From Desulfatiglandales bacterium (GTDB lineage: Bacteria > Desulfobacterota > DSM-4660 > Desulfatiglandales > Desulfatiglandaceae), in assembly GCA_963666345.1 (NCBI GenBank), contig OY762721.1, positions 1,184,001 to 1,248,000 on the forward strand: a DNA stretch of 64,000 nt. The letters are read 5' to 3'. Shown here one piece after another: positions 24,561-44,115 of the stretch (positions are counted from its first letter, which is position 1; each line of letters starts with the position of its first letter). A program made the position numbers and the translations under genes. The notes under the pieces are model-generated. The model made no database searches. It was not told the origin of the DNA and saw only the letters and a program-made list of their open reading frames with translations.

Positions 24561-24636
24561 TCCATTTATAAAGATCGATTCCAAAGACAATCAATAAGTT
24601 AGGATCTTTCCTTCTGATTTTCAGGCAAGAACTGCA

Positions 24637-25286: not shown

Positions 25287-25843
<557 letters not shown>

Positions 25844-25886
25844 ATAAACCCCTTGTTTGATTGATGGATAGACGATATCTACGTAA

Positions 25887-28481
25887 TTGTATAATGCCAC
25901 CGACATAGCGGAAAAATTCATAGAATCAAGAGCTGAGCTCTTTTATAAGGGGCTTAAAGAATATACCGGTTTGACCCTGGCCCGCAAATACACTCACCTC
26001 ATGGACCGCTTTGTCAGTGCCCTTTTCTCCTTTCAGGGGCGGAAAAGATCCTCTAAAAAATCAGGAACAGACGTTTTTGCCCTGCTGGCCTTAGGCAGTT
26101 ACGGCAGACGGGAGCTGTGCCTTAACTCCGATGTGGATCTTATGATAGTTCACCAGGGCAGGCTCGGCAGTGAAATGGAAAGGGTTATCTCATCCACCCT
26201 TTACCCTCTCTGGGACTCAAAGATTGAAGTAGGTCATTCCATCGTCTCCGTGCAGGAATGCATCCACCTTGCCTTTCAGGATTTCAGGGTCCTGACCTCT
26301 TTGATGGACTGCCGATTTATCCTGGGATCCGGATCTTTTTTCAGGCTTTTTGAAGAGGCCCTTTACTCCAGGATATCCCGTGAAGGTAAAAAAATCCTGA
26401 CTCAGTTTCTAATCCTCCAGCAGGATCGCGCCGACAGATCAAACAGGGAAGGAGCCTTCCTGGAACCTGACATAAAGGAAGGCCTGGGCGGTCTCAGGGA
26501 CCTTCACACCATGACCTGGATGTCCAGGGCGTTTTTCAAATGCAAAAAGATCAGCCAGATGAAAAAATATGAGGCCTTTGCTCATTTCGAATTCAACAGA
26601 CTCTCCCGCTCCAGGGGCTTTCTCATAAGGCTGAGAAACCACCTTCATGCTCTTACCAAAAGAAAAGAAGACCACCTTCTTTTACCCTTTCAGCAGAAAA
26701 TCCCGCTTCTTCTTGGCTATAAAGACCGTTCCGGCATAAGTGCTGAAGAAAGTTTCATGAAGGAGCTCTACCTTCACATGAACCGTATAAGGTACGGATA
26801 TGAGCAGTTTCAGGTAAAAACCCTGGATATAATCTCTCCCTTCCCTCCATCACGACATAAAGGTCTTATACCATCTGAGGAATTTGAAATCATAAAGGGC
26901 AACCTTGTACTCGCCAAAGGAAGCCTGAAAGAAAAGGACCCGGGGGTGATACTAAGGGCACTTAACGAGGCGGACAGGCTCGGCCTCTATCTTGGATCCG
27001 GCTTCATCTGGGAGGCTGAAAAAATCCTGTCCCAAAGGGGAAAGGAGTTGAAATCATCCAAAGAGATGGGGGCACTTTTCCTTGGTTTCATGCTGAGACC
27101 TCCGGATTTCGATCTATTAAGGCTTTCTCTGGAAATCGGACTGATCAGCCTTTTCATACCTGAATTCAAGAAAATCAGGAATCTTCCACAGTTCGGTGTC
27201 TATCATGTTGAAACGGTTGATCTACACTCACTCAGGACCCTTCACATACTCAAGAAGATATCCCTGAGTGACGGCAAATGGCCCCAATTGAAACAGATCT
27301 TTGACAGCCTCAAAGACCCTGAACAGCTCTTTCTTGCCTGCGTCCTTCATGATATCGGCAAGGGATACGGATCGGATCATTGCCAAAAGGGGTCTGAACT
27401 GATCGCAAGAATCCTGAAAAGATTCAAAATAGGAGACAGGACAATTGAAACGGTAAAGTTTCTGGTCCTTAATCATGTCTTTCTCGCCCACATATCTCAA
27501 AGGAGGGATCTGAACGATGAAAAGACGGCCGTAAACGTGGCACAGACCGCAGGGGATAAAGACACCCTGGCGATGCTCCTTCTCCTGACTGTGGCGGACA
27601 GCTTTGCCACAGGGCCGCTCGCCAGAAGCGACTGGAAGATTCTTCTGATGATCGAACTCTACCGCAAGGCGGAAAACATACTTGAAAAGGGGATGTTGGC
27701 CTCCCCTGATGCCACGAAAAAGATACGGCAAAAAAGGGCATCCGCCCTTGAAACGGTAAAGGATCTCTTTCCCGCAAAGGAGATCTCAAAGCTCATGGAA
27801 GGCATTCCCGCCGGATATCTTCTCAACACCGATCCGGGAGATATTGAAGATCATTTAATGATGGCCCTGGACATGGGTAAAGATATCCATAAATGGCGGT
27901 TCAAAAAGATTGAAGACACCGGGATAACTCGAATCCTTCAGTGCATCAGGGACAGGCCCGGTTTCTTCAGCAAGATGGTAGGGGTCCTAACTCTTCACAA
28001 CATAAAGGTCATCACCTCTCAGATATATACCCTTAAAAACGGCCTTGCCTTTGACATCTACGAGGTCACTGACCCCTCCGATCCGGTTTACAATGAGGAA
28101 AAATGGCGCAGGATACGTGAGCAGATCATCCTGGCATTGGAAGAAGACCTGCCCCTGGACGAGATGATAAAAAGGAAGGGAAAGATGACCCTCTCAAAAG
28201 AGGGCTACAGCAGAAAAAAGGGCAAAAGGGTAACTGTGAGCAACCGCATATCGGATTTTTTCACCATAATAGAGGTATGGGCGGAACCGAGGCTGGGCCT
28301 TTTGTATGAATTGGGGAAAAGCATTTCATACCTTGGCCTTGATATAAGATTTGCAAGGTTCAACAGCGACGAAGAGCAGGTGACAGGGGTGTTCTATGTC
28401 AGGGACCGCTACGGCCAGAAGATAGAGGAGAGGGAAAAACTGCATCGGATAAGGGAGGATATAGGATCTCTCATCGCATAG
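25887..28481 (+). CDS. glnD: [Protein-PII] uridylyltransferase/uridylyl-removing enzyme
   Basis: GSYGR.EL...SDVDL NTase, EPDIKEG.GGLRD, HD domain LHDIGKG, two C-terminal ACT domains; follows glnB. Confidence 0.93.
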   Translation: MYNATDIAEKFIESRAELFYKGLKEYTGLTLARKYTHLMDRFVSALFSFQGRKRSSKKSGTDVFALLALGSYGRRELCLNSDVDLMIVHQGRLGSEMERVISSTLYPLWDSKIEVGHSIVSVQECIHLAFQDFRVLTSLMDCRFILGSGSFFRLFEEALYSRISREGKKILTQFLILQQDRADRSNREGAFLEPDIKEGLGGLRDLHTMTWMSRAFFKCKKISQMKKYEAFAHFEFNRLSRSRGFLIRLRNHLHALTKRKEDHLLLPFQQKIPLLLGYKDRSGISAEESFMKELYLHMNRIRYGYEQFQVKTLDIISPFPPSRHKGLIPSEEFEIIKGNLVLAKGSLKEKDPGVILRALNEADRLGLYLGSGFIWEAEKILSQRGKELKSSKEMGALFLGFMLRPPDFDLLRLSLEIGLISLFIPEFKKIRNLPQFGVYHVETVDLHSLRTLHILKKISLSDGKWPQLKQIFDSLKDPEQLFLACVLHDIGKGYGSDHCQKGSELIARILKRFKIGDRTIETVKFLVLNHVFLAHISQRRDLNDEKTAVNVAQTAGDKDTLAMLLLLTVADSFATGPLARSDWKILLMIELYRKAENILEKGMLASPDATKKIRQKRASALETVKDLFPAKEISKLMEGIPAGYLLNTDPGDIEDHLMMALDMGKDIHKWRFKKIEDTGITRILQCIRDRPGFFSKMVGVLTLHNIKVITSQIYTLKNGLAFDIYEVTDPSDPVYNEEKWRRIREQIILALEEDLPLDEMIKRKGKMTLSKEGYSRKKGKRVTVSNRISDFFTIIEVWAEPRLGLLYELGKSISYLGLDIRFARFNSDEEQVTGVFYVRDRYGQKIEEREKLHRIREDIGSLIA

Positions 28482-28587: not shown

Positions 28588-31233
28588 TCAGGCCTTACCC
28601 CATTCTTCAAGCCCGTCCTTTTCATCCGCGGTCGTTCCTTTGGGCCTTACCTTGCGGTAGACATCCAGGGGATCTCTTCTCTCCCCATTGACTTTAAGCA
28701 GATCATCCTCTATGGAAATTCCGAAGTATCTTTCATTTTCTTCAAGATAAGGAAGAATCAGATCCCAGTCCTTTTCTTCAAGACGCACTATCTCACCGCC
28801 GTTTAATTGCTGATCCTCGATAAGGGCGTAAGGATCTCTGACATAGACCGCACCGCCCGAGGCAAGAGAAAAGAGGTTTGAACCGGGATAGGGAGTCGCC
28901 TGGGCCTTCACCTTTCCCTCATCCTCAAACTCGACACCGTTAAGCACGACAAAACCTCCCCCCTTGAGCGGATCACCCGCCATGAAGGACTCACCAAGAT
29001 AGTCGAGGCAGGTCCCGTTTATCACCACTCTGGGGCTGCCGACCGCGTTTATCAGGGGCCGGCCCGCGGCGTTTCCCATGACGTAGACCTCTCCGCCTTT
29101 GGCCCCGTACATGAATGTCTGGCCGATGTCCCCATGTATAACCATTTTCCCCGATTTCATTACCTGCCCCAGCTGGTCCTGGGCATTTCCATGGACATGT
29201 ATGGAAAGCCCGTCTATGCCGCTTCCCATATAATCCCCGGAGCTTCCGTATATATCTATCCTGACCCCTCCCGAGTCACTGCCCAGGCCGCAGCCGTGGA
29301 ACCGCTGCCCCTTGAGGCCGAAGACTATAAACCTGCGCCACCCCCTGAAAAAGGCCTCCGCAAGAAGCCTGCTGTCACAATTATTTCCTTCGGGCGGGAA
29401 AAGTGAGGCATCTATCACAAGGACCTTTTCATCATATGCGGGCCCCCTGAAAAACTGCCGCATCTCCCAGTCTACAAGCCTGTAAGAACCGGCCGAGTCT
29501 TCTCTTTGAAGAGAAGGAAAATGCCTGAATATGGTCTCAAGGGTCTGGTTTATCATCTGGAGGATGGAGCGTCTCTTCTTGTCGTATGTGGGATATCGCC
29601 TGTCGATAAGTTTCGTGAGAGCACTTAAGGCCACCTCCAGATGGGCATCATCCTTAAGTGCCCATGCCCTGACCTCCTTGAGGCAGTCCATGAGATCCGC
29701 GTAGTCCCAGTCCCTCATCCCCTCTCTTATGTAATCGAAAAGAGCATCGGGTCTCTGTAGTTCGAAAAAGCCGGACACCTCGAAACGATCCCTCGACTCA
29801 TCATCCATGAGATAATAGACCCTGCCCGGCAGATACGGAGACTGGTTCTCAGGCACGGTGATCCGTCTTCCGAATTTATCGTTACAGCTTAATCGAAGTC
29901 CCTCATTGCCGTAATCCTCGTCATCATCCAGGCTGAATATAAAGGCACCCCCGTCCGTGTAGCTGCCCCCGCGTGCGTTCCAGTATTTGTCCGCAACCGT
30001 CCCGATCCTCGGGTCCTCCTCTGAAAGGCTTTTCAGGGTGGCGTCTATGGCCTGTTTCTCCGAGCAGATAAGGCCGACCTGGACCTGCCCCTCATGGAGG
30101 GCGAAGACCTGAGGCCTCAGCATTGCGGTGTCGGTAATGCCTATGAGCTGAAGCCTGTCTTTTTCCGTGTCGTTTCTCGCAATAATGAAAAACCATGGCC
30201 CGTCAGGCGAGCCATGGACATGCGAGCGCTGGATGGCACGGTAGATTTCCTGTTTATCAGGGTCGAGCAGATCGAAATCCCTTTCCATGGTCGGAGCCAG
30301 GGCCTCTATTACATACTCAAGGGGATAACCGTATGTCCTGCTGTAGAGATCAAACAGCTGGGCAGACACCTCGGTGTCTGTCAGAAACTGAGGGTATATA
30401 TTCCTCAGGCTCAAATATTGCGCCACGGAATGATAATTCGCGAAATCCCCGTTATGGACAAGCGCCTCATTGACACCTATGAATGGATGGGCCCCTGCAG
30501 GATGCCATACCCTTCCTTTGGTGGGATACCTCTGATGGGCTATCCATATATGCGCCTTGAAATTATCCAGTTTATAGTATTGGACAACCTGCTCCGCGTA
30601 ACCTACTATCTTGAGTATGAAAAAATTACGGCCGTGGGAAAGGACAAACGCCCTCTGCTGTCCATAGGCGTCATAGAAGGTCTTGTTTATCATGAAGCTG
30701 TTCTGATAGACGAATTCATCCTCCGCCTGTCTGTCTGAAAGTCCTTTTAGACCTTTTTCCTCCATGAACCCCTGCAGCACCTCAGGTCTTACCCTTACAA
30801 AATAGCGCTGGACCTCGGGAGGTCTTACGTCCAGCCCCTTGATATCCCTGTAATCATCAACGTGAGGCAGGCGTTCTGACAACGCCACCGTGAAAAAAGG
30901 CTCTATGAAACGGACCTCTATTTCAGGCAGCACTTCCTCTTCCAGGATGGCTATCTGAAGGATATAGTCATCCCTGAGCGTCCGCCTAGACACCCCCAGC
31001 ATCCTGTGGTCAAAACCCATGGCCGCTATTCCGCCTCCGCGACCGTTGCCCCGGTTGTGCATCTGTCTTGAGGGTTCATAGATATGCTTGCCCCTTACGG
31101 GGATAGAGCACGCAAAACCTGTTACACCGCATCCTCCCTCGGCCTCCGTCTCATAGGAGGCCCTGACAGGATAGCCCTCGGTCATCGATTCCCTGGAAAG
31201 CACGACTTTTCTTATTATGTCCTCTCTGTTCAT
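28588..31233 (-). CDS. Split-type glutamate synthase subunit: class II glutamine amidotransferase fused to a GXGXG beta-helix domain
   Basis: AEGGCGV nucleophile, MHNRGN, AHQRYPT, AHPF, VHNGD, TDTEV; C-terminal GSSGDY.GSG, GNAQDQ, FMYGAKGG, LGESFMAG repeats. Confidence 0.85.
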   Translation of the reverse strand: MNREDIIRKVVLSRESMTEGYPVRASYETEAEGGCGVTGFACSIPVRGKHIYEPSRQMHNRGNGRGGGIAAMGFDHRMLGVSRRTLRDDYILQIAILEEEVLPEIEVRFIEPFFTVALSERLPHVDDYRDIKGLDVRPPEVQRYFVRVRPEVLQGFMEEKGLKGLSDRQAEDEFVYQNSFMINKTFYDAYGQQRAFVLSHGRNFFILKIVGYAEQVVQYYKLDNFKAHIWIAHQRYPTKGRVWHPAGAHPFIGVNEALVHNGDFANYHSVAQYLSLRNIYPQFLTDTEVSAQLFDLYSRTYGYPLEYVIEALAPTMERDFDLLDPDKQEIYRAIQRSHVHGSPDGPWFFIIARNDTEKDRLQLIGITDTAMLRPQVFALHEGQVQVGLICSEKQAIDATLKSLSEEDPRIGTVADKYWNARGGSYTDGGAFIFSLDDDEDYGNEGLRLSCNDKFGRRITVPENQSPYLPGRVYYLMDDESRDRFEVSGFFELQRPDALFDYIREGMRDWDYADLMDCLKEVRAWALKDDAHLEVALSALTKLIDRRYPTYDKKRRSILQMINQTLETIFRHFPSLQREDSAGSYRLVDWEMRQFFRGPAYDEKVLVIDASLFPPEGNNCDSRLLAEAFFRGWRRFIVFGLKGQRFHGCGLGSDSGGVRIDIYGSSGDYMGSGIDGLSIHVHGNAQDQLGQVMKSGKMVIHGDIGQTFMYGAKGGEVYVMGNAAGRPLINAVGSPRVVINGTCLDYLGESFMAGDPLKGGGFVVLNGVEFEDEGKVKAQATPYPGSNLFSLASGGAVYVRDPYALIEDQQLNGGEIVRLEEKDWDLILPYLEENERYFGISIEDDLLKVNGERRDPLDVYRKVRPKGTTADEKDGLEEWGKA

Positions 31234-31350
31234 TGGAAAACCTGTATGGTTCTTCTCCCGATTAGTTGGTGTTAAACAGGGCTAAATAAAGAAATCCTTC
31301 TTATTTAAGCGGCTGAGTGCTCGTAGGATTCTTCGCCCTCGCTTAGCTCA

Positions 31351-31443
31351 GCTCAGTCCCACTGCTTCGCAGCGGGTTCCCGGTTTCTTTGCTCCGCTTG
31401 CGCTTCGCTCAGTCCCACTGCTTCGCAGCGGGTTCCCGGTTTC
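31351..31443. repeat. Two perfect 37-bp direct repeats inside the cassette
   Basis: GCTCAGTCCCACTGCTTCGCAGCGGGTTCCCGGTTTC at 31351-31387 and 31407-31443, separated by 19 bp. Confidence 0.95.
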
Positions 31444-31491
31444 AAGGGGTCTAGGATTCAAGGATTCCAGTGCTCCATTGAAACGGCGGAT

Positions 31492-31653
31492 ACGCTAAAG
31501 CGTTACAAAGATTTAAAGCTGTTGCAGAAATCCTGCGAATGCTTTTCAGGTATAGAATAAATGAAAAATTCTCAAATAACATGAGGTACACAGAGCTCAA
31601 TAAATCGTTAAAAATACTGATAAAGTCTTAAAAAAAACAAACCCTTGGACCCT
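31492..31653 (+). pseudogene. Internally deleted remnant resembling a four-helix-bundle (23S rRNA IVS/bAvd-like) gene
   Basis: ACG(T)LKRYKDLKLLQKS resembles the family N-terminus (..YKELKVWQKS). LKILIKS then (frameshift) KNKPLDP resembles the C-terminus. Preceded by GGATTCAA-like octamers. Recognised from memory only. Confidence 0.5.
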
Positions 31654-31687
31654 CTTCGCCAACTAAGTTGGAGAAGAACCACCTTTA

Positions 31688-33181
31688 TTAATCTCTGTCT
31701 GCCTTTTCCTTCATATAATCGAGGTGAACGAGGCAGTCTGTCCGCCCTACAAGCTCTTTCAGACTATCCATTCCCAGCTTCCTGAGTATTCTGATGAGTT
31801 CCTTTCGCCAGGCAAGAAAGAGGTTTATTACCCTCTGAGTGCCCCACTCTATGGTCATCAGCTGCATCAGCTCCGGATCAGTCGTGGCTATACCCCTTGC
31901 GCAACCCCTCCCCCTCTCACAGTTATGGCAGCGCACGCACTCAAGGGCTACCAGATCGGCCGTGCCTGTGCAGACTCCGTCCGCACCCAGCGCTATTATC
32001 TTGGCCACGTCGTGGGGGGTCCTGATCCCTCCGCTCGCAATGACGGTGATCCTGTCCCTCACACCTTCTTCCTTCAAAAATCGATGTACCTTGGGAACGG
32101 CATACTCGATCGGCATGGCGATATTTTTCTTTGCGATTTCAGGCGCGGCACCTGTTCCGCCGTAGCTCCCGTCAAGGTGCACGATATGGGCGCCCGCGTA
32201 ATAACTGCCCACCGCGACCATATCCACGTCGGTAGGTGTTGAGACCTTGACCGATACAAGGGCCCGCGGATTTATCGACTTTATCCAGTCTACATGCTTT
32301 TTGTGGTCTTCCACGGAATAGACGCTGTGAAACGGAAAAGGTGAAAACAGGGGATACCCCACAACCGCCTCACGCATCCTGGCGACACCGGGAGTCACCT
32401 TGTCTCCCAGCAGATGACCCCCAAGGCCCGGTTTTGCTCCCTGAGCGTATTTAAACTCCACTATCTTCACCCTCTGGATGGTCTCTTCTCTCACCCCGAA
32501 CAGACCTGTCGCCACCTGGGTAATGACATGGTCGTCATAAGGCTTTAGCTCATCGGGAAAACCTCCCTCACCGGTGCAACAGAAGGTACCGAGTGCCGCA
32601 GCCGCCTTTATCCTGCTCAGCATGGTATTGATGCTTACAGAGCCGTAGGACATGCCGCCGCCGTAAAAAGGGACCCTTATATCCACCTTGTGGGCGTTGT
32701 CCCGCCTCCTGTTAAGAGAAACTGAAAGATCCGGGTCCTCCCCTGGTTCTTCCTTTGAAGAATTCCTGAATAAAAGTCTAAGCTTGTCGAATCCTCCGCC
32801 CGAGCCCCCTGTACGGTATTCTAGGCCCTTTTGAGGGACCTCTCCATTTTCCGCCATGTGCCAGGTGCTTACGAGCAGATCGGGAGTCCACCTGAGGTCT
32901 CCCATCACATCGAAATCAGGGTTTCTCCTTATTGAAAGGGCATCTACCGGGCAGGCCTGATAACAAGGCTCAGCACAGTCATCACCGATGCACAGGTGAT
33001 GATTCTCCACCAGCACACGCCCCCTTCTCACTGCATGCACGCCATAAGGGCATATCTCTACGCATTTGCCGCAGCCGATGCATTCATTGCTGCGGTGCAG
33101 GCGGTATTTGCCTATCGGATTTCTGAAACGGGATCCCGTTTTAACCGGCTGTGGAAGTTCTTTTTCCTTTTTGTTATTCAA
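31688..33181 (-). CDS. Glutamate synthase FMN-binding (synthase) subunit with N-terminal ferredoxin-like domain, catalytic motifs intact
   Basis: CIGCGKCVEICP and C...C..ACP; MSYGS, TGEGG, QVATGLFGV, AQGAKPGLGGHL, GGTGAAP, SGGIR, CVRCHNC..GRGC.RGIAT. Start placed at TTG 33181 (AGGAGG 9 nt upstream, overlapping the previous stop). Confidence 0.88.
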   Translation of the reverse strand: MNNKKEKELPQPVKTGSRFRNPIGKYRLHRSNECIGCGKCVEICPYGVHAVRRGRVLVENHHLCIGDDCAEPCYQACPVDALSIRRNPDFDVMGDLRWTPDLLVSTWHMAENGEVPQKGLEYRTGGSGGGFDKLRLLFRNSSKEEPGEDPDLSVSLNRRRDNAHKVDIRVPFYGGGMSYGSVSINTMLSRIKAAAALGTFCCTGEGGFPDELKPYDDHVITQVATGLFGVREETIQRVKIVEFKYAQGAKPGLGGHLLGDKVTPGVARMREAVVGYPLFSPFPFHSVYSVEDHKKHVDWIKSINPRALVSVKVSTPTDVDMVAVGSYYAGAHIVHLDGSYGGTGAAPEIAKKNIAMPIEYAVPKVHRFLKEEGVRDRITVIASGGIRTPHDVAKIIALGADGVCTGTADLVALECVRCHNCERGRGCARGIATTDPELMQLMTIEWGTQRVINLFLAWRKELIRILRKLGMDSLKELVGRTDCLVHLDYMKEKADRD

Positions 33182-34568
33182 TCTCACATCCCTCCTCGAC
33201 ATGGCACATCTCTTCAAAGGTACTCCTGTCAAGCTCTTCAAAAAACATGGCCCTTCCCGTTTCACCCCTGAGCCTTCTGGCGTCCCTTATGCCCATGGCG
33301 CCCATTACCTCCAGGAGTTGACTGTGCCAGGCACCCATGAGATTTATTACCCTGCCGGCCACCCAGGAAGAATTCGCGGAGGCTATTTCCACTGGGCAGG
33401 GAACCCCCTTTTCGCAGCGCCTGCACATCCTGCATTCAAGCGCAATCAAAAGGGCAAGATCCACATAAACCGCGTCAGCTCCGCAGATTATGCCCTTTGC
33501 CACATGCTCGGCCATAGCGATACCCCCGCTGACAACCAGGCTCGCCCTGTCCCGCACTCCATCCTCAACCAGACGCATATGGACCGAACGCACCGCTTCC
33601 ATAAGATATCTCGATTCATCGTCAACATAGCGGCCCTGGCTGCTTCCTTCCAGATGTATGATCGAAACCCCGCCCCTTGCAAGAGAAAGAGCTGCATCTT
33701 CCACGCCGCTTTTTATCGGTATCCTTACCGATACGAGCAGGCCCCGGCTTAAGGCATCAGTAATGTCGATACTTCTCTTCCATCCTTCACTCCAGGGGAT
33801 CTCTATGACGCGCACGCCTTCAGGTATCGCATCTTTTTCAAATTCGGAATCATATACGGGAATAAGTGTTTCTGCCGATTCCGCGGTATTCCCTTCTATC
33901 AACTCGCCGGGTAAGGCCATCAGCGTCCCGAGTCTCATCGCGGCATCTGACCAGCCCTTCAGGGTCTTGGGGCTTAAATCCCCAAAGGGAGGGACCCTGA
34001 AAAGTATCGGCATCGGCAGGTTCAGTGCTTCAGGGGCCTTTCCTGCCAGGCTTCCGTCTTCCTTGAATGTTATAAAATCCTGGCGGCTTCCCAGATCAAC
34101 CGCAGTGCTTATATATTCCCTGCCGTGGATACCGTCCCTTGTCGGACGGACGATCTCAGACATATCAGTCCACATGGAATCAAATCCCGGTCCTGAAAAG
34201 GCCCCTGCGTACCCGGCGCCTGAGACAGGGATCTTCCCTGTTTCAGCCTGAGACCAGAGTTTGGATATTATGTCCGGCATCCAGTATGAATCCCCCATCG
34301 CCTCATATTCCGGGTTCACTGATTTGTGGATCAACTCCCCGGGGCAGGACTGAACGCATCTCAGGCAGTTCATGCACTGATTATCTATCGATTCGATCAT
34401 CTGATCGGTCCGTAGTCCCCGCCTTTCATATACCCCGTAAACGCACCTGGTCTTGACGCAGACAGGGCACTTGAGACAGCCCTCTTCCCATGCAATTATC
34501 CCGGATCTTGACACAGGCTCATAGCGGTCAGATACGGGACCGGTATGTATCGCGTATTTGGCAGGCAT
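33174..34568 (-). CDS. Degenerate glutamate-synthase FMN-domain paralogue with N-terminal Fe-S domain
   Basis: CLKCPVC....C and CMNCLRCVQSCP; GFDSMWTDMSEIVRPTRDGIHGRE; C-terminal SGGI..AEHVAK.IICGAD and CRMCRRC.....CP. Lacks MSYG, TGEGG and QGAKPG. Confidence 0.8.
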   Translation of the reverse strand: MPAKYAIHTGPVSDRYEPVSRSGIIAWEEGCLKCPVCVKTRCVYGVYERRGLRTDQMIESIDNQCMNCLRCVQSCPGELIHKSVNPEYEAMGDSYWMPDIISKLWSQAETGKIPVSGAGYAGAFSGPGFDSMWTDMSEIVRPTRDGIHGREYISTAVDLGSRQDFITFKEDGSLAGKAPEALNLPMPILFRVPPFGDLSPKTLKGWSDAAMRLGTLMALPGELIEGNTAESAETLIPVYDSEFEKDAIPEGVRVIEIPWSEGWKRSIDITDALSRGLLVSVRIPIKSGVEDAALSLARGGVSIIHLEGSSQGRYVDDESRYLMEAVRSVHMRLVEDGVRDRASLVVSGGIAMAEHVAKGIICGADAVYVDLALLIALECRMCRRCEKGVPCPVEIASANSSWVAGRVINLMGAWHSQLLEVMGAMGIRDARRLRGETGRAMFFEELDRSTFEEMCHVEEGCEIE

Positions 34569-34577
34569 CCTTATCCC

Positions 34578-35510
34578 CTAATCCTTTCCACAAGCAGGCC
34601 TCGGCAGAAGACCGGCCCTTTCCACGATCTGTCCCACGATATCTTCCCATTCGATTGCCATTATATGGACGCCCCGCACCCCCTCAAGCTCCTTCAGTCT
34701 TTCTATGGTCTCCACACAGATCTTGAGGCCCTCTTCCTTCTGCCTGTCTTTGGGCACACCGTCCATCCGTCTTATTATCTTATCCGGGATATCCATGCCG
34801 GCCACCCTGTTTTTCATATATCTTGCCATGCCGGCCGACTTAAGTGGAGTAACCCCGCCCAGGATGGCGACCTTTTCGGTCAGACCCCTGTCTTTTGCCA
34901 TTTCAAACCATCTTTCAAAGCGCTCAAGGTTATATATGCACTGGGTCTGGATAAAATCAGCTCCTGCGGCAATCTTTTTTGCAAGCCTTACGATCCTGAA
35001 CTCCGGCGGATCCGCAAAGGGATTGGCGGCGGCCCCTATGAAGGCCTTAACCGGCTCGCTTAAAGACTCGCCCCCCAGGATGACGCCCTTATCCCTCATA
35101 TCCCTGATCACCTGAATAAACTGGGTGGAATCGATATCAAACACACCCAGGGCCTGCCCCTGGTTTCCGAAGCTCTGGTGGTCTCCTGAAAGACAGAGTA
35201 TGTTATTGATCCCCAGGGCGGAGGCACCCAGGACATCCGACTGAAGCGCGATACGGTTCCTGTCCCGCATTACCATCTGAAGCACCGGATCAAGCCCTGC
35301 CTCTTTAAGTAACACGCATGCGGCAAGACTCGACATCCTTACTATGGCGGTCTGGTTGTCCGTGACGTTTACCGCGTCAATCGATCCCCTTAGCATGTCT
35401 GCCTTTTTGAGGACAACCCCCGGATCACTACCTTTGGGAGGCCCGCATTCGGCCGTAACCGCGAAAGCCCCCTTTTCCAGAACTCTTTTAAGCATCCCTG
35501 TATTATTCAC
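34578..35510 (-). CDS. metF: Methylenetetrahydrofolate reductase catalytic subunit
   Basis: TAECGPPKG, NVTDN, RDRNRIALQ, LSGDH, GADFIQTQ, GVHIM. Confidence 0.92.
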   Translation of the reverse strand: MNNTGMLKRVLEKGAFAVTAECGPPKGSDPGVVLKKADMLRGSIDAVNVTDNQTAIVRMSSLAACVLLKEAGLDPVLQMVMRDRNRIALQSDVLGASALGINNILCLSGDHQSFGNQGQALGVFDIDSTQFIQVIRDMRDKGVILGGESLSEPVKAFIGAAANPFADPPEFRIVRLAKKIAAGADFIQTQCIYNLERFERWFEMAKDRGLTEKVAILGGVTPLKSAGMARYMKNRVAGMDIPDKIIRRMDGVPKDRQKEEGLKICVETIERLKELEGVRGVHIMAIEWEDIVGQIVERAGLLPRPACGKD

Positions 35511-36175
35511 TTTTGTTGATCCTCCCTCACGATCTTTCTCGGGCCGCCCCCCTGTTTCTTAGACCAGTCCTTTGGAGGATAGATCTTCTCCAGTCTTTCA
35601 AGGGCATCAAATTTCGCCAGTCTGTCTATTATGAGCTGCCACGCACATGGTATATCAGGGTTTACCTCGCATTTCCCGTCGACCGAACCACCGCACGGCC
35701 CGTTGAGCAGGTGTTTTGAGCACCGGGCAAGAGGGCATATTCCGCCGAAATCAAAAAGCATGCAGTCTCCGCATCCGAGGCAGTTTTCGACCCAGAGGCC
35801 CCGTTCCTTTGTCTCGCCGATGAACTCCGTATTAAGGGCCGGGATAACCGGCATATCATCGTACATCTCAGCCACGGCCTGAACCCCGGCCCCGCAGGCA
35901 AGGGAGAGAATCGCGTCATATTCCTCAATAACCCTGTCCAGCTGAAGCACGAACTCATTCACGCACTGCCTTTCCAGGGTCATCTCCTTGATCATGCGTT
36001 CCTCGCCGTTCATCTTGTCTGCCATTCGAAGGACCGAGGCCAGCATGGCGGTCTCCTTTTCACCCCCTGCCGCACATTCCGCCACGCAGGAAGCACACCC
36101 CAAGGCCAGTACCCTCTTATAAGGGGCCATCATGGCCCTGATCTCTTCAATAGGCTTCTGTTCTGCAGTTATCAT
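35507..36175 (-). CDS. metV: MetV (Cys-rich Fe-S/Zn subunit of MTHFR)
   Basis: CASCVAEC, RQC, ACGAG, CLGCGDC, CPLARCSK..LNGPCGGS..GKCEV....CAW; GTGA overlap with metF. Confidence 0.9.
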   Translation of the reverse strand: MITAEQKPIEEIRAMMAPYKRVLALGCASCVAECAAGGEKETAMLASVLRMADKMNGEERMIKEMTLERQCVNEFVLQLDRVIEEYDAILSLACGAGVQAVAEMYDDMPVIPALNTEFIGETKERGLWVENCLGCGDCMLFDFGGICPLARCSKHLLNGPCGGSVDGKCEVNPDIPCAWQLIIDRLAKFDALERLEKIYPPKDWSKKQGGGPRKIVREDQQK

Positions 36176-36211
36176 CTCTTCTGTCTCCTCTCGAAATATA
36201 ACCTTTTGGAA

Positions 36212-36646
36212 TTACCCGCGATCTTCCCCTCTCCGGTTAAAGACGGGAGATACGCCAAGCCTTGAAGCGGTCTCCATAAGCTCATGCAAATGCTCTGAAA
36301 GGGTTTTTGTCTTTTCTTTATTTCCAATGATTATCCCGATCCTCTCCGATTCAAGACCTATACCTGCGATGACGGCCTTTGTCCTTTCCACTCTCTTTAC
36401 GGCGCGTCTGTTCCCCTCGAAATAGCGGCACGCCCCTTCCGGACAGGTGATAACATAAGCCGCGTCCGCGAACTCTTCCAATGCCCTCAAAAGATGAACA
36501 GGCTCAAGCCTGCCGCTGCAGGCAAGAGGAAAAAGCCGGACATGAGTCCCATATTCTTTCTCAAGGGCCTGTCTTTCCTCTTCGCTGCTGCCTGGGACAT
36601 TTCTGCAATAAAAGAGGGCCACCCTGGCCTTCGGTGATTCCTTCAT
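36212..36646 (-). CDS. mvhD: MvhD/FlpD-type [2Fe-2S] hydrogenase iron-sulfur subunit
   Basis: FYC, CSGR, C..G.C.Y..GN..A..RV, GL..ERI motifs. Confidence 0.88.
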   Translation of the reverse strand: MKESPKARVALFYCRNVPGSSEEERQALEKEYGTHVRLFPLACSGRLEPVHLLRALEEFADAAYVITCPEGACRYFEGNRRAVKRVERTKAVIAGIGLESERIGIIIGNKEKTKTLSEHLHELMETASRLGVSPVFNRRGEDRG

Positions 36647-36769
36647 CTTGATGATAATCCTTTCGCCCTGGGAGTTGACCTTTCATGGAAGACAGGGAGA
36701 CCCTGCAATCCGGGCACACCGGTCAGGTTGAAACTTCCGGAGGTATTTCATTCAGGGGAATGATACGGA

Positions 36770-38074
36770 TCAGAACACGTATATTTGATGGCTGTCAGGA
36801 TTCTTTCCAAAGCAGGTGATATCATCCACCTTATTCAGTACGGGACCCTTGGTCAGGGCATAAAGTGTACGCTCCACCCCGATGCCTCCTCCAAAGGTCT
36901 CAGGGAAAGTAGGCATGCCCTGTTTGTCCTTTTTGGCGGTCATAAGCAGAAACGGCCCGTACCCGCCCAGTTCATCGATATTTCTGATATTGCCTTCATA
37001 TATTACGGGCCTGGAGGGAATAATATTGTTATCCAGCAAACGCTCAACAATCGCCTCATGGATCCATTCCCTCACCGCGCCTGAAAGAATCTCAATCGCG
37101 GGGGTCTGCTCCCCGGTATCCCGCATTATACTCTTGGCGCATATGTCATAGTTATAGATCATGTCAGAGGTAAGCTCAGACAGAGACACCTTTCCTTCAG
37201 GCCTCAGATAGGGGTAAACCAGGTCGTAGTTTTCCCTCAGCAGTCCGGTGATCCAGAAAAACTGATCCGCCAAATCCTCCCCGAGCCTTGTCTCATATCG
37301 TCTTCCATACTTCCTTTTTGCTTCATCAGCCCTGAATCTGGGAAACGGCCGGCTGGGGACCTCAAGGGCCACCCCAAGTGTTTTCAGATCCTCCTCGTTT
37401 TTCTCTACAAGCCGGGTAACGCTGTGGATGATGAGCCGCTCGAACAGATCCATCGCCCTTTCCATATCCTCGGCCAGGATCTTTTTGACCCTCTCCGGTT
37501 CCTTCAGATACATCTCGAGATCGATTCCCCTGTTTCTCCTCACCTCAAGGTCCATCTGGCTGAAATCTATAAGGTACCTGCCGCGCTGAGCCCGATCAGG
37601 GCTTTCCATTTCAAGCCTGATATTGGGGGAATCCACGAATATTCCCTTGATCCTCGGATTGTGACAGGCAAGAAATTTGGAATATATCATGCTGTGGGTC
37701 ATAACGTAGAGCTGCCCCTTGTAATGGATGCTCGGGACATATTCCACGTCATGGGCTAGAGGGTCCGTTATCTCACTTATCTGAACCCTCTCCATATTGA
37801 AGAGCCCTTCATCCGCAAGGAACTGGTGCATGGCATTTACAAAAGTGGTCCTTAGCGATAAGGCCGCGTAAAGGACATCACCCGTCCACTTGTTGTAGTA
37901 ATACTTGTCCAGATATTCCTCCAGGCTTGAACCTGCCTCTGTAAGGGCGGCCTGAAAACCGAACAGGCTCTGACCTATGGCGGTCATGGTCTCATCTTTC
38001 ATAATTGCCGAAATCTCCTCTGATAAGTTCACGCAACCGGCGCCAGCCGATGGCCCGGAAGCAATCATTCCCAT
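36770..38074 (-). CDS. Class II aaRS catalytic-core paralogue lacking the anticodon domain, resembling archaeal-type asparagine synthetase A (AS-AR/AsnRS2)
   Basis: SEITDPL, THSM..K, SPNIRLE, R...DFSQMDLE, NYD, E..SG..REW, GGGIGVER parallel the Pyrococcus AS-AR motifs; no N-terminal OB fold. Confidence 0.7.
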   Translation of the reverse strand: MGMIASGPSAGAGCVNLSEEISAIMKDETMTAIGQSLFGFQAALTEAGSSLEEYLDKYYYNKWTGDVLYAALSLRTTFVNAMHQFLADEGLFNMERVQISEITDPLAHDVEYVPSIHYKGQLYVMTHSMIYSKFLACHNPRIKGIFVDSPNIRLEMESPDRAQRGRYLIDFSQMDLEVRRNRGIDLEMYLKEPERVKKILAEDMERAMDLFERLIIHSVTRLVEKNEEDLKTLGVALEVPSRPFPRFRADEAKRKYGRRYETRLGEDLADQFFWITGLLRENYDLVYPYLRPEGKVSLSELTSDMIYNYDICAKSIMRDTGEQTPAIEILSGAVREWIHEAIVERLLDNNIIPSRPVIYEGNIRNIDELGGYGPFLLMTAKKDKQGMPTFPETFGGGIGVERTLYALTKGPVLNKVDDITCFGKNPDSHQIYVF

Positions 38075-38106
38075 CCGTCCGGAAATCAGATATTTCCGAA
38101 CGGATG
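38072..38106. other. 15-bp stem-loop in the glnA/asnA-like spacer
   Basis: CATCCGTCCGGAAAT-CAGAT-ATTTCCGAACGGATG (14/15 Watson-Crick pairs, 15/15 with G-U on the minus-strand mRNA). Confidence 0.8.
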
Positions 38107-38110
38107 TCTG

Positions 38111-39439
38111 TTAAAGTTTTCCCAGATATCTATCAAGTTCAAACTGACTCACATGAGTCCTGTAATCATCCCATTCTATCTTCTTGTTTTCTATGAACTT
38201 ATTGAACACATGCTCTCCAAGCACCTTTTTTACCAGCTCGCTCTTTTCCGTCTCAATGATGGATGCGTAAAGATTTCCCGGAAGATCCGAGATCCCGTGG
38301 GCCTTTCTTTCGGCAGGGTTCATCTCGAAGATATCCTCTTCAATAGGCTCCGGAAGTTCATATCCCTTTTCTATTCCTTCAAGACCCGCCCCCAGCATCA
38401 ACGCAAAGGCCAGGTATGGGTTACACGCCGGATCAGGCGACCTGAATTCCATCCTTGTGGCCGTCTCTTTGCCCGGCTTGTACATGGGCACCCTTATCAT
38501 CGCGGACCTGTTTCTCCTTGCCCACGACACGTATACAGGTGCCTCGTAACCCGGCACAAGCCTTTTGTATGAGTTTACCCACTGGTTGGTGATGGAAGTA
38601 ATTTCCGGGGCATGCCTTAACAGGCCTGCGATATAGCATTTTGCCATCTCAGACAGATTATATTTGTCATCCGGGTCATAAAAGGCATTCCTGCCTCCCT
38701 TGAAAAGCGATTGATGCACATGCATCCCGCTCCCGTTTTCTCCGAATACAGGTTTTGGCATGAAAGTGGCGTACATACCCTGGTGCATTGCCGCCTCCTT
38801 GACCACCATCCTGTAAGTCATTGTGGTATCCGCCATTCTGAGCGCCTCGTCATATCTGAGGTCGATCTCATGCTGACTGGGTGCCACCTCATGATGGCTG
38901 TATTCAACCTGAATTCCCATAGATTGCAGGGAAAAGATGATCTCTCGCCTTAAGTCACTGCCCAGATCAAGAGGCCGGGCGTCAAAATACCCCCCCTTGT
39001 CGGTCATTTCAGTGGAATGATCATCTTTAAAACAGAAAAATTCAAGTTCAGGCCCTGTATAAAATGTATAGCCGTCTGCGGAGACCTTCTTGAGAAGCCT
39101 TTTCAGTACATATCTCGGGTCCCCCTCGTAGTGAGTCCCGTCAGGGTTCAATATATCGCAGAACATTCTTGCCACGGGTCTTTCATCACTCCTCCAGGGC
39201 AGAAGCTGGAAGGTTTCAGGATCCGGCTTCGCTATCATGTCACTTTCCTCAATCCTGGCGAAACCCTCGATGGAGGAACCGTCAAAACCCATCCCCTCGG
39301 TAAGCCCCTCTTCCAGTTCAGAGGGAGTAACAGCGAAGCTTTTAAGAAAACCGAGCACGTCGGTAAACCAGAACTGGATGAAACTGACATCCCGTTCCTT
39401 TACTTCTTTCATTACATCTTCCCTACTTTTGCAGTTCAT
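38111..39439 (-). CDS. glnA: Glutamine synthetase type I-alpha
   Basis: FDGSSIEG..RIEESDM, HHEVAPSQHEI, ATFMPKP..G.NGSGMH, NSYKRLVPGYEAP, NRSA.IRVP, EFRSPDP.CNPY; 442 aa. Confidence 0.95.
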   Translation of the reverse strand: MNCKSREDVMKEVKERDVSFIQFWFTDVLGFLKSFAVTPSELEEGLTEGMGFDGSSIEGFARIEESDMIAKPDPETFQLLPWRSDERPVARMFCDILNPDGTHYEGDPRYVLKRLLKKVSADGYTFYTGPELEFFCFKDDHSTEMTDKGGYFDARPLDLGSDLRREIIFSLQSMGIQVEYSHHEVAPSQHEIDLRYDEALRMADTTMTYRMVVKEAAMHQGMYATFMPKPVFGENGSGMHVHQSLFKGGRNAFYDPDDKYNLSEMAKCYIAGLLRHAPEITSITNQWVNSYKRLVPGYEAPVYVSWARRNRSAMIRVPMYKPGKETATRMEFRSPDPACNPYLAFALMLGAGLEGIEKGYELPEPIEEDIFEMNPAERKAHGISDLPGNLYASIIETEKSELVKKVLGEHVFNKFIENKKIEWDDYRTHVSQFELDRYLGKL

Positions 39440-39504
39440 GATTTCATCTCCTTAAACCTGTTATGGTATAATGCCTCTATCGGCCATATCTGTCTCACTA
39501 ACAA

Positions 39505-39521
39505 AGCAATCATTATGCCAA
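39505..39521 (-). promoter_or_regulatory. Sigma54 promoter for the glnA operon
   Basis: Minus strand TTGGCATAATGATTGCT (TGGCA-N6-TTGC), about 65 bp upstream of glnA. Confidence 0.8.
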
Positions 39522-39824
39522 ACCCGAAAAGGCCGGTTCAATAAAGCTCCCCGCATCAATCTGCGGGCCGCCCGGGCAAACACGGATAGAGGCCTCTATT
39601 ACATGCAGGCAATACGCTATCTTCCCGCACCAACCGCCTGCTTGAACATGCCTTTTTTCATACAAGCATATATCATATGGGGCACCCGCACAAGGATATA
39701 CACGGGAGGGCCGGGTAGCTATATAAAGAGATATAAATCAAGGCGAGTGCGGTTTGCAAGGCAAGGGTTTTGTTTTGTCTTCATGTAATCGTAAGTGCAT
39801 GCCTGCCTCCAATTCTAATTTCAT

Positions 39825-39866
39825 ACAATTTTGTAATAAAAATTGCCTCATTAACACAATTTTGTA
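39825..39866. promoter_or_regulatory. Tandem candidate enhancer sites ACAATTTTGTA x2 (31-bp spacing)
   Basis: 39825-39835 and 39856-39866; the same 11-mer is at 24637. Confidence 0.55.
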
Positions 39867-39942
39867 CTTTACGCCCTTCCTATTTGTACCGCCCCCCAAC
39901 CAGCCCGGCAATTACCGTTTCCCGATACCTCTATCTTTTTTT

Positions 39943-40141
39943 CGCACAAGCGCAGGTGCCGGCGCTCTTTTTTCCGGCCTTATCTCACAAAAAATACCAC
40001 AGGAAAATGCAGTGGCCGCAGACAGGGCTTTCTTTCACAGTGCCTTGTCAGCTAATGTAACGCCCGCAAAAGCCCTTGGATACGGCCACTTTTCCGTCAA
40101 GTATAGAGAAGGCCGGAGAAATGAGTGCCGGTGCCGGAGCG
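39943..40141. mobile_element. ~200-bp MITE-like element, copy 2 (same orientation as 24846-25045)
   Basis: Left GCCGGCGCTCTTTTTTCCGGCCTTATCT versus right AGAGAAGGCCGGAGAAATGAGTGCCGGT forms a ~28-bp imperfect inverted repeat; highly similar to copy 1. Confidence 0.75.
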
Positions 40142-40482
40142 TACCTGCTATAAATGGGCAAGAAAGACGTGAAACAGCTCCCCATTCGGACTTTCGACCC
40201 ACTGAATCCCTGTACATCTGAGTCCTCATGCCCGGTCAATATGCAAAGAGGTTGTAAAAAGGGCCTGTTTCTTGCAGAATAGAGGTGTTTTTAAAAAAAA
40301 GGACCTTGATAAAAAAGACATGAATCATAAAATCCCCAATTTAGTGCGGATTTTTATATCATGGGAATTACCTCCCGATTAGGGAATAAACACATTAATC
40401 CTTGACCCTTTGGGTACCTGGATTATCTTTCCCGAATCAGCCGTACAAGGACTTATTGTGAAAAGTATCCGGTGAATCGATA

Positions 40483-42654: not shown

Positions 42655-42657
42655 AAA

Positions 42658-44115
42658 ATGGAACTGTGCGATATGACGGCATCCGAACTTCTTCGAATGC
42701 TCAAAAAAGGGAGTGTCAACTCCGTTGAAATCCTGCGCTCCGTCCTTAAAAGGACTCAAGAAAGGGAGACGTCTCTAAATTGTTTTATAACAAGGACAGG
42801 GAAAACCGCGCTCGATCAGGCTGAAGAGGCGGACAGCCGGATAAGGCAGGCAGGGGATATTCCCCTTTTAAACGGCATACCGGTTGCCGTAAAAGACAAC
42901 CTGTGTACCAGAGGCATAAGGACGACCTGCGGTTCAAAGATCCTTTACAATTATATCCCGCCCTACAACGCCACATGCGTTGAAAAAATATTCGACCAGG
43001 GCGCGATCATGGTGGGCAAGACCAATCTTGACGAGTTCGGAATGGGCTCTTCAACCGAAAACAGCGCCTTCGGGCCGACCAGGAATCCCTTGAATCCCGA
43101 ATTTGTTGCAGGCGGCTCAAGCGGCGGGTCCGCTGCGGCGGTTGCATCAGGTGAAACGATTCTTGCCCTTGGTACCGACACGGGAGGGTCTATCCGCCTG
43201 CCTGCCGCCTTCTGTGGAATTGTCGGAATAAAGCCTACCTATGGAAGGGTATCCAGATACGGTCTTGTATCCTACGCATCCTCTCTTGATCAGGTGGGGG
43301 CCCTGGGCAGAAGTGTCGAAGACTGCGGCCTTGTCTTGAATGCGGTCTGCGGAAAGGATCCGAGGGACTCCACATCCGTTGAACTTGAAAGACCTGGTTT
43401 TCTCGATTCAATAGAAAAGGGCGTCAGGGGAGTCAGGATCGGCCTTCCAAAGGAATATTTCGTGGAGGGCATGAACAGCGGGGTCAGGGATAACATACTG
43501 AGGGCGGTTGAAGGACTCGAAAGGGAAGGTGCCCGGATAATCGACATATCCCTTCCTCACACCAAGTACGCCATAAGTTCCTATTACCTTATAGCAACGG
43601 CGGAGGCAAGCAGCAATCTGGCCAGGTACGACGGGGTCAAGTATGGTTTCAGGGCCGGGGGCGAGACGTCGGATCTATTGGAGATGTATGAGGCAACCAG
43701 GAGCGAAGGTTTTGGAAGCGAGGTAAAGAGACGTATCATACTGGGCAGTTATGTGCTTTCAGCCGGCTATTACGACGCCTATTACATAAAGGCCCAAGAG
43801 ACAAGAAGGCTGATAAACAACGACTTTGAGAGGGCCTTTGAAAAGGTGGACTGTCTCATAACCCCTGTATCCCCCTTTCTTCCCTTCAGGCTTGGCGAAA
43901 AGATCGAAGAGCCGCTACAGATGTACCTGGTGGATATCTACACCGTGTCGGTAAATCTCTGCGGGCTGCCCGGCATGAGCATAAACTGCGGGAAATCGGA
44001 AGGACTTCCGGTTGGATTTCAGATAATCGGAAGGCCCTTTGATGAAAACATGGTGCTCAGAGTGGGCAGGGCTCACGAAATTATATCAAAAGCAAACGCA
44101 TCCGCCGAAGTATAA
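42658..44115 (+). CDS. gatA: Asp/Glu-tRNA amidotransferase subunit A
   Basis: KDN, GKTNLDEF.MGSS, GGSSGGS, TDTGGSIR, EASSNLARYDG, EVKRRI.LG. Confidence 0.97.
   Translation: MELCDMTASELLRMLKKGSVNSVEILRSVLKRTQERETSLNCFITRTGKTALDQAEEADSRIRQAGDIPLLNGIPVAVKDNLCTRGIRTTCGSKILYNYIPPYNATCVEKIFDQGAIMVGKTNLDEFGMGSSTENSAFGPTRNPLNPEFVAGGSSGGSAAAVASGETILALGTDTGGSIRLPAAFCGIVGIKPTYGRVSRYGLVSYASSLDQVGALGRSVEDCGLVLNAVCGKDPRDSTSVELERPGFLDSIEKGVRGVRIGLPKEYFVEGMNSGVRDNILRAVEGLEREGARIIDISLPHTKYAISSYYLIATAEASSNLARYDGVKYGFRAGGETSDLLEMYEATRSEGFGSEVKRRIILGSYVLSAGYYDAYYIKAQETRRLINNDFERAFEKVDCLITPVSPFLPFRLGEKIEEPLQMYLVDIYTVSVNLCGLPGMSINCGKSEGLPVGFQIIGRPFDENMVLRVGRAHEIISKANASAEV

Follow-up and report, generated by a model that had tools for sequence, protein, structure and literature searches.

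A stretch of 64,000 nucleotides of contig OY762721.1 (assembly GCA_963666345.1, positions 1,184,001 to 1,248,000), from a Desulfatiglandales bacterium and referred to below as the window, contains an operon in which glnA and the genes of a split glutamate synthase (GOGAT) are joined to genes for MvhD, MetV and MetF. Judged from its sequence, the operon appears to encode the only glutamate synthase of the organism, in a form that lacks the NAD(P)H-binding subunit GltD. It is likely that MvhD and MetV/MetF (MetVF), together with an iron-sulfur-only paralogue of the flavin mononucleotide (FMN) subunit of the synthase, here called P6, are the electron-transfer partner set of this enzyme. The more specific reading, that of a self-contained glutamate synthase which would take its electrons from methyl-tetrahydrofolate (methyl-THF) through MetF, MetV, MvhD and P6, is proposed at a little under even odds (a probability of roughly 45%). 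Glutamate synthase is the main gate of ammonium into biomass, and its textbook forms are dependent on NAD(P)H, ferredoxin or, as predicted, F420. The operon comprises eight co-oriented open reading frames (ORFs) on the minus strand, at 28588-39439 of the window. Their number, orientation and order (glnA, an AsnA-like gene, mvhD, metV, metF, P6, the FMN subunit, and a fusion of glutamine amidotransferase (GATase) and GXGXG domains) had been put forward in the original prediction, and are borne out by the ORF coordinates and by family assignment with Pfam and NCBIfam profiles:

38111..39439, minus strand: glnA, type I glutamine synthetase (GS), 442 aa; Gln-synt_C 447 bits, Gln-synt_N 106 bits, TIGR00653 549 bits (cut-off 429)
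36770..38074, minus strand: AsnA-like paralogue of the class-II aminoacyl-tRNA-synthetase core, 434 aa; tRNA-synt_2 39 bits, PRK06462 136 bits (under its cut-off of 309)
36212..36646, minus strand: mvhD, divergent MvhD/FlpD [2Fe-2S] adaptor (putative cluster), 144 aa; FlpD PF02662 76 bits (cut-off 22.3)
35507..36175, minus strand: metV, iron-sulfur (Fe-S) subunit of a MetFV-type methylene-THF reductase, 222 aa; DUF5981 PF12225 123 bits
34578..35510, minus strand: metF, catalytic subunit of a MetFV-type methylene-THF reductase, 310 aa; MTHFR PF02219 132 bits
33174..34568, minus strand: P6, iron-sulfur-only paralogue of the GltS FMN subunit, 464 aa; Glu_synthase 69.6 bits, over profile positions 205-368 only, plus an Fer4 region
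31688..33265 (start uncertain), minus strand: GltS FMN (synthase) subunit with an N-terminal 2x[4Fe-4S] domain; Glu_synthase PF01645 310 bits
28588..31233, minus strand: fusion of a class-II (Ntn) GATase and a GXGXG domain, 881 aa; GXGXG PF01493 54 bits (cut-off 32.5)

Residues 196-515 of the FMN subunit align to residues 849-1171 of the A. brasilense GltS alpha subunit (E 1e-52). The GltS substrate and FMN motifs are invariant across 40 sequences, as are the eight cysteines of the 2x[4Fe-4S] domain and a further four (C422/425/428/434), which form a C-x2-C-x2-C-x5-C motif at the position where GltS has its [3Fe-4S] ligands. The GATase_6 match of the fusion protein is weak (26.2 bits, just below the cut-off of 27), as are its matches to GlmS/PurF (E 1e-4 to 3e-3). 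In an alignment of 55 sequences, however, Cys35 of this protein is invariant and follows an unconserved leader, and the motifs R-Y-P-T, H-N-G-D and T-D-T-E-V are conserved; the alignment makes a propeptide of 34 residues ahead of Cys35 likely. By these profile matches and motifs the three modules of a glutamate synthase, namely the FMN synthase, the class-II amidotransferase and the GXGXG domain, all appear to be present. No member of the GltD or HdrA families was found among the eight operon proteins with Pfam and NCBIfam profiles, in agreement with what had been claimed earlier. Over the whole genome, which is a single contig of 4.16 Mb, the two operon proteins match the Glu_synthase domain at 311 and 70 bits and the next best match reaches 44 bits; thus the operon is identified as the GOGAT of this organism. 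A glutamate dehydrogenase is also encoded, and is an alternative route to glutamate.

P6, the linked MetF and the conserved gene string

P6 is composed of an N-terminal 2x[4Fe-4S] domain, a triosephosphate isomerase (TIM) barrel and a third cluster motif of four cysteines. Its 12 invariant cysteines make up two ferredoxin-type motifs and the set C379/382/385/391, and a block spanning residues 113-155 is also invariant; the first half of the barrel is without the motifs for substrate and FMN. The AlphaFold model of P6 is an FMN-type TIM barrel, with a predicted local distance difference test (pLDDT) score of 78 and a predicted template modelling (pTM) score of 0.81. Foldseek searches with this model returned generic FMN TIM barrels and GltS, including a match at low root-mean-square deviation to GltS 7mfm_G, and nothing more specific. 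The invariant block is the sole stretch of low confidence in the model, as would be expected if it formed an interface. In all three long frames that were checked, and in all of the best 120 of 1072 longer relatives, P6 is fused upstream of an FMN subunit. These fusions indicate that P6 belongs physically to the synthase, and their arrangement mirrors the central-then-FMN domain order of canonical GltB. A complex prediction made from the P6 and MvhD alignments returned a score of 0.11, against a mark of 0.32, and counts neither for nor against a complex.

The linked MetF, as the copy beside P6 is called here, retains E21, G109-D110-H111 and T189-Q190 across 61 sequences, in alignment with the methylenetetrahydrofolate reductase (MTHFR) of T. 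thermophilus (1v93). E21 and D110 are taken to be the catalytic Glu and Asp, and Q190 the folate-binding Gln, with roles as in E. coli MetF. Its identity to the HdrA-linked copies of the same genome is 56-63%. When 65 distinct P6-linked sequences were compared with 31 distinct HdrA-linked ones, leaving aside three long-branch rows, the outgroup, L144 and four rows of unknown context, 116 positions were conserved (at least 90%) and identical in both sets, and just two showed conservative differences. The linked MetF clade thus appears to be free of active-site drift, and because it is nearly indistinguishable from the HdrA-linked copies at conserved positions, folate chemistry is plausible for it. 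MetV has 13 cysteines that are invariant across 60 sequences. The operon MvhD, with four invariant cysteines (14, 43, 68 and 73), is the divergent member of its family in this genome, scoring 76 bits against 144-176 bits for the other seven copies. A tree of 137 columns separates it weakly from HdrA-adjacent MvhDs, the alignment being too short to resolve them. Of the eight MvhD-family matches in the genome, four (at 298628, 749667, 2623005 and 2627046) contain one in-frame TGA, and these genes probably encode selenocysteine MvhD; the operon copy contains none.

In a quick IQ-TREE analysis of 113 MetF rows (104 different), with support given by the Shimodaira-Hasegawa-like approximate likelihood ratio test (SH-aLRT) only, 71 of the 74 P6-linked rows fall in one clade (96), apart from two HdrA-linked clades (98 and 99). 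The remaining three lie on a separate long branch near the outgroup, and come from records labelled Abyssobacteria (L058) or "uncultured bacterium" (L047 and L054). The linked clade was found in 15 of 31 relatives, each time beside P6, and in none of 14 genomes that lack P6. Four of those 14 encode a canonical GltB of 1400-1560 aa, another four have other split FMN subunits, and six have nothing at E<=1e-30. Since relatives without P6 carry canonical GltB or other split forms, the P6 system seems to stand in for ordinary GOGAT.

Conservation of the gene string was surveyed with one genome per species, which gave at least 568 relatives of P6; the upstream genes were read for the best 80. The order mvhD-metV-metF-P6 is present in 57 of these 80 loci, six more have metF followed by the end of the contig, and one has mvhD and metF without metV, so that metF is the gene directly before P6 in 64 of the 76 informative loci. 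The rest comprise five loci with mvhD-P6 only, seven archaeal loci with neither gene, and four that are uninformative. P6 itself was detected (E<=1e-40) in 114 of 401 genomes sampled from the phylum, representing 73 of 255 genera. Of these 114 genomes, 40 were hand-selected to cover different families and to leave enough room on the contig, and are therefore a non-random sample: the full string was present in 16 and was cut by a contig end in one more, hdrA and two mvhD genes occurred with metV and metF before P6 in five, mvhD-metV-P6 without metF in two, mvhD-P6 only in 11, a GlcD-like gene before P6 in four, and nothing recognisable in one. Different orders, and records assigned to other phyla, share the gene order, and relatives of P6 also occur in records labelled as methane-cycling archaea.

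In all six archaeal loci scanned for domains (L060, L065, L066, L073, L074 and L083) the slot before P6 is occupied by a GlcD-like protein of 611-641 aa, consisting of FAD_binding_4, FAD-oxidase_C and 2x[4Fe-4S] domains, and the four bacterial counterparts among the 40 picked genomes (L164-L167) were identified by tblastn. Members of the GlcD-like flavoprotein family oxidise their substrates. From the counts of these variants, the constant part of the system is MvhD or the GlcD-like protein, followed by P6, the FMN subunit and the GATase-GXGXG protein, and MetVF is its commonest addition. In the five genomes with hdrA (L156, L159, L163, L168 and L169), hdrA and two mvhD genes are interleaved with metV and metF, directly before P6; these variants may represent a larger Hdr-GOGAT assembly. 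In the two that lack metF (L161 and L175), mvhD and metV precede P6 with no metF between them, such that MetV is kept without an adjacent MetF.

Proposed electron path and competing explanations

In the proposed scheme, the class-II amidotransferase-GXGXG protein would release ammonia from glutamine, and the FMN/Fe-S synthase subunit would reduce 2-iminoglutarate to glutamate. P6, in which the substrate motifs are lost and three cubane-type cluster motifs are kept, would serve as a wiring or scaffold subunit in place of the central domain of canonical GltB, and the divergent MvhD protein with its putative [2Fe-2S] cluster would join P6 to the dedicated MetV/MetF pair. The MetF flavin would oxidise methyl-THF to methylene-THF and pass the electrons on through the MetV clusters, the [2Fe-2S] cluster of MvhD, the P6 clusters and the Fe-S/FMN centres of the synthase to 2-iminoglutarate. 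The net reaction would be methyl-THF + glutamine + 2-oxoglutarate -> methylene-THF + 2 glutamate, with expression probably under nitrogen (sigma54) control together with glnA. We infer the complex, the order of the carriers and, above all, the direction of flow from sequence.

This reading is based on the conserved string, the tight coupling of metV, metF and P6 (a 4-bp overlap and a 9-bp spacing, see below), the separate MetF lineage and the intact MetF motifs, and also on the fact that the genome offers its GOGAT no other donor module. The best GltD-like (Fer4_20) gene comes after a PyrK-like gene, as in NfnAB, and the other Fer4_20 matches sit in long multidomain frames; there is accordingly no dedicated gltD, the sole good candidate being Nfn-like. 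Five MTHFR-family genes, three MetV, eight MvhD and several HdrA-like genes are present. The two further metVF sets are hdrA-mvhD-metV-metF modules of Wood-Ljungdahl type (about 283-288 kb and 296-301 kb), in which the HdrA proteins have MvhD and MetVF of their own. Because no module that reads NAD(P)H, F420 or H2 is part of the operon, and a spare GltD is absent from the genome, a chain from MetF to the synthase is the simplest self-contained arrangement. That the slot before P6 receives a substrate-oxidising input module is supported by the GlcD-like protein that fills the same slot elsewhere. The genome encodes DsrA (574 bits) and acetyl-CoA synthase (CdhC/AcsB domain, 233 bits), and the nearest P6 loci are in records labelled Desulfobacteraceae or Desulfatiglandales, from which the organism can be described as a sulfate reducer with a Wood-Ljungdahl pathway. 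By our own estimate, GOGAT accepts electrons at a considerably higher potential than that of the methylene-/methyl-THF couple. Two papers (PMC5861303, PMC6895022) place this couple at -200 mV and describe methyl-THF oxidation as a barrier for acetate oxidisers.

Several observations weigh against methyl-THF as the donor. No fusion of P6 with a MetF, MetV or MvhD domain occurs among the best 120 of the 1072 longer relatives. P6 and the FMN subunit both carry ferredoxin-like 2x[4Fe-4S] domains, through which electrons could enter directly from ferredoxin. The operons with mvhD-P6 and no MetVF (five of the 80 loci, 11 of the 40 genomes) imply that the core works without MetVF and that other electron sources are possible, and hdrA with a second mvhD beside metVF-P6 (five of the 40) points to redox logic of another kind or on a larger scale. 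Acetyl-CoA synthase was found in 15 of 17 genomes with MetVF-type operons and in 8-9 of 11 genomes with the MvhD-only type, so that a confinement of MetVF-type operons to acetyl-CoA synthase genomes was rejected: presence of the synthase does not separate the two types. Four MetVF-bearing genomes of 95-100% completeness lack it, and a plentiful Wood-Ljungdahl pool of methyl-THF is therefore no precondition for the linked MetVF. The idea that the GOGAT-linked MetF is the sole MTHFR in genomes without acetyl-CoA synthase was likewise rejected, as each of five such genomes has two to five MTHFR matches. The quick nature of the MetF tree and its single support measure also count here. Of the folate-linked GOGAT that the original prediction had envisaged, the conservation of the string, the existence of separate hdrA-metVF sets and the lack of a dedicated gltD have held up; the distribution of acetyl-CoA synthase, the MvhD-only forms and the missing fusions speak against it.

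In a different arrangement, MvhD and P6 would be a socket to a donor encoded elsewhere (an HdrA-type flavoprotein, a hydrogenase, or ferredoxin by way of the 2x[4Fe-4S] domains). MetVF would then share the Fe-S wire, either as another acceptor of high potential or to buffer redox changes, and where Hdr is present an electron bifurcation would have GOGAT and methylene-THF reduction as exergonic branches. The MvhD-only operons, the loci with hdrA and two mvhD genes, and the failure of acetyl-CoA synthase to track the MetVF type all fit this arrangement, as do the eight MvhD and several HdrA-like genes of the genome and, according to PMC5861303, the role of HdrA as the partner of MvhD in the known MvhADG-HdrABC and MetFV-HdrABC-MvhD complexes. 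It is nevertheless rather unlikely: the operon has no such donor module, both HdrA sets of the genome already own an MvhD and MetVF, an additional methylene-THF-reducing enzyme behind glnA would have no evident purpose, the operon MvhD is divergent from the HdrA-adjacent ones (by its profile score and, weakly resolved, by the tree), and the GlcD-like variant suggests a slot for a substrate-oxidising dehydrogenase.

The possibility that MetVF-MvhD and the split GOGAT work independently and are just transcribed together, for example with the former in one-carbon supply for purine, histidine and methionine synthesis and the latter fed by ferredoxin, draws on the surroundings of the operon, since a supercluster of glutamine-using genes (purF, carAB, hisHF, gatCAB) demonstrates that co-location by regulation occurs here, and on the missing fusions of P6 to MetF, MetV or MvhD. 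It is improbable in view of the linked MetF clade, which accompanies P6 in all 15 genomes that have it and is absent from the 14 relatives without P6, of a gene order that does not change between orders or in records assigned to other phyla, of the translational coupling of metV, metF and P6, and of the MvhD gene that stays beside P6 where MetVF is absent; in addition, a biosynthetic, E. coli-type MetF is encoded elsewhere in the genome (310 bits). Least probable by far is the alternative raised in the original prediction, of a system like N-methylglutamate synthase or some other amine-transfer system built of GltB-domain homologues, with MetF handling the released one-carbon unit. MgsABC are homologues of the three GltB domains and are encoded near a GS-family gene, and a trio of GltB domains with a GS-family gene and a folate enzyme does resemble the methylamine pathway set. 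The GS of this operon, however, reaches 549 bits as a type I GlnA equivalog (cut-off 429). The FMN subunit, the sole strong Glu_synthase-domain gene in the genome, aligns to A. brasilense GltS at E 1e-52, with its cluster cysteines and the GltS motifs for substrate and FMN retained. The flanks encode PII, GlnD and glutamine-dependent enzymes, and no sarcosine-oxidase-like dehydrogenase genes were found among the 46 flanking ORFs scanned. Relative to MgsABC, the present system thus has a true GlnA, Fe-S sites that imply redox chemistry, and a context of ammonium assimilation.

The reading with methyl-THF as donor can be placed within a broader one, which is offered tentatively. The core of P6 and GltS might be a general socket for swappable substrate dehydrogenases, acting here as a methyl-THF:(glutamine + 2-oxoglutarate) oxidoreductase, fed in sister lineages by a GlcD-like 2-hydroxyacid dehydrogenase, and forming an exergonic branch of bifurcation where HdrA is present.

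Compared with GltBD (A. brasilense alpha 1EA0/2VDC/6S6S; B. subtilis 7MFM) and the split "archaeal-type" GOGAT, the operon encodes the same three catalytic modules, its amidotransferase likewise has an invariant Cys behind an unconserved, propeptide-like leader, and P6, often fused upstream of the FMN domain, stands in the position of the central domain. It differs in that GltD/beta is absent, with MvhD and MetVF where the NAD(P)H-reading subunit would be; that the GATase is fused to GXGXG while the FMN domain is separate; that a four-cysteine C-x2-C-x2-C-x5-C motif replaces three [3Fe-4S] ligands; and that both P6 and the FMN subunit have an extra 2x[4Fe-4S] domain. Unlike the single-chain Fd-GltS of ~1500 aa, its domains are spread over the P6, FMN subunit and GATase-GXGXG genes. 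For the folate side, the MetFV-HdrABC-MvhD methylenetetrahydrofolate reductase of Moorella thermoacetica was reportedly described by Mock et al. in 2014. According to PMC5861303, MetF, MetV and MvhD are co-encoded there as they are here. The present operon lacks HdrA, HdrB and HdrC, has a divergent MvhD and has glutamate synthase subunits as partners, and the direction proposed for it is methyl-THF oxidation rather than methylene-THF reduction.

Among published systems, the one that comes closest to a swapped input module is the predicted F420-dependent glutamate synthase of archaea (PMC9012536), in which FrhB-family genes are clustered with glutamate synthase subunits. The idea of a GOGAT core with an input module replacing GltD is common to both; the module is FrhB/F420 in the published case and MvhD-MetVF here, and the archaeal P6 loci carry the GlcD-like protein, not FrhB. 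A search of full-text literature, which left subscription journals and supplements outside, turned up no paper in which MetF, MetV or MvhD is linked to glutamate synthase genes, and the statement of the original prediction that no biochemical description of such a complex was known is in keeping with this. The operon represents a widespread form of GOGAT without GltD, Fd-type or F420 input subunits, encoded with MetFV/MvhD or a GlcD-like flavoprotein. If the proposed electron path is correct, sulfate reducers and syntrophs would have a direct link between the breakdown of one-carbon units and the assimilation of nitrogen, the additional MetFV copies that annotation routinely assigns to the Wood-Ljungdahl pathway would acquire a function, and the system would be an example of energy-limited anaerobes sparing low-potential reductant. 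Should the broader socket reading be true as well, nitrogen assimilation would run on the electrons that the hard step of the oxidative acetyl-CoA pathway releases at -200 mV, and not on NADPH or ferredoxin. The finding is also relevant to annotation, as P6 and the linked metF copies currently carry generic labels ("glutamate synthase-related protein", "alpha-hydroxy-acid oxidizing protein" and plain MTHFR).

Operon layout and promoter

The ORF coordinates give a 4-bp overlap between metV and metF and a spacing of 9 bp between metF and P6, both as originally described; the gaps between glnA, the AsnA-like gene, mvhD and metV are 36, 123 and 36 bp. An overlap of 8 bp had also been claimed for the two FMN-domain genes. 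The overlap is real, and its extent depends on the start of the FMN gene, for which GTG 33265, ATG 33202, GTG 33187 and TTG 33181 are all in frame. The best Shine-Dalgarno-like run among these candidates, GAGGAGGG, precedes GTG 33187, and the true start is probably located within 33181-33202. Given this ambiguity, the P6/FMN-gene overlap is stated as a range of 8 to 92 bp. Two non-coding features bear on transcription of the operon:

39505..39520, minus strand: sigma54-like -24/-12 element, one mismatch to TGGCAC-N5-TTGCW, ~65 nt upstream of the glnA start
31234..31687, no strand assigned: intergenic gap of 454 bp between the FMN gene and the GATase-GXGXG gene, with copies of a dispersed repeat and a T-rich stretch

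The sigma54 promoter call is based on the position of the element before glnA, the presence of RpoN in the genome, and comparable sites that precede glnA by 77-141 nt in four of nine bacterial loci with this gene. Sites with up to one mismatch number two in the window against 1.71 expected by chance from shuffles, which leaves the site before glnA plausible as a promoter and statistically not distinctive. Sigma54 sites directly upstream of mvhD were found in just five of 52 loci of relatives. The 454-bp gap contains two copies of a repeat unit of roughly 37 bases. One 16-mer of this repeat occurs 39 times in the genome, two of them in the gap, and often in pairs 56 bases apart; the repeat looks REP/MITE-like (repetitive extragenic palindrome or miniature inverted-repeat transposable element). 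In relatives, the gap before the GATase-GXGXG gene measures anything from less than 20 bp to some 850 bp. The transcript may break in the repeat-filled gap, so that a single transcript of all eight genes is uncertain. The earlier suggestion of one sigma54 promoter for all eight genes therefore stands as far as the placement of a candidate site is concerned, and is weakened by the chance-level frequency of such sites and by the gap.

The AsnA-like gene is accessory and lies outside the conserved core, occurring between glnA and mvhD in just three of the 80 loci (L034, L052 and L080), with fragments in L102 and L104. The best solved relatives of its product are the archaeal AsnA structures 1nnh/3p8t (E about 1e-10), which match residues 68-186 only, and its Atlas cluster is named "putative asparagine synthetase A".

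Genomic neighbourhood

The operon lies within a supercluster of genes that make or use glutamine (17084-28481 and 40483-45662 of the window). One flank consists of purF, carB, carA, hisF and hisH, followed by glnB (PII) and glnD, and a perfect sigma54 consensus is present upstream of hisH (24544-24559, minus strand). The other flank encodes an aspS-gatC fusion, gatA and gatB. No Hdr genes were found in the operon or its flanks. The 723-aa product of the fusion gene (40483-42654, plus strand) is a complete aspartyl-tRNA synthetase, with anticodon-binding, class-II core and GAD domains, to which GatC is appended at the C terminus; gatA and gatB follow, and the fusion links a non-discriminating synthetase to the amidotransferase. 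Between glnA and aspS-gatC is a divergent intergenic region of nearly 1 kb (39521-40482) with two short ORFs only, neither of which belongs to a Pfam family. Farther along the plus strand (47684-57727) is a cluster encoding two acetyl-CoA hydrolase/transferase-GNAT fusions, an acetyl-CoA synthetase, a second AMP-binding enzyme, a GNAT protein and a histone-deacetylase-family protein, a composition that suggests control of acyl-CoA synthetases by acetylation.

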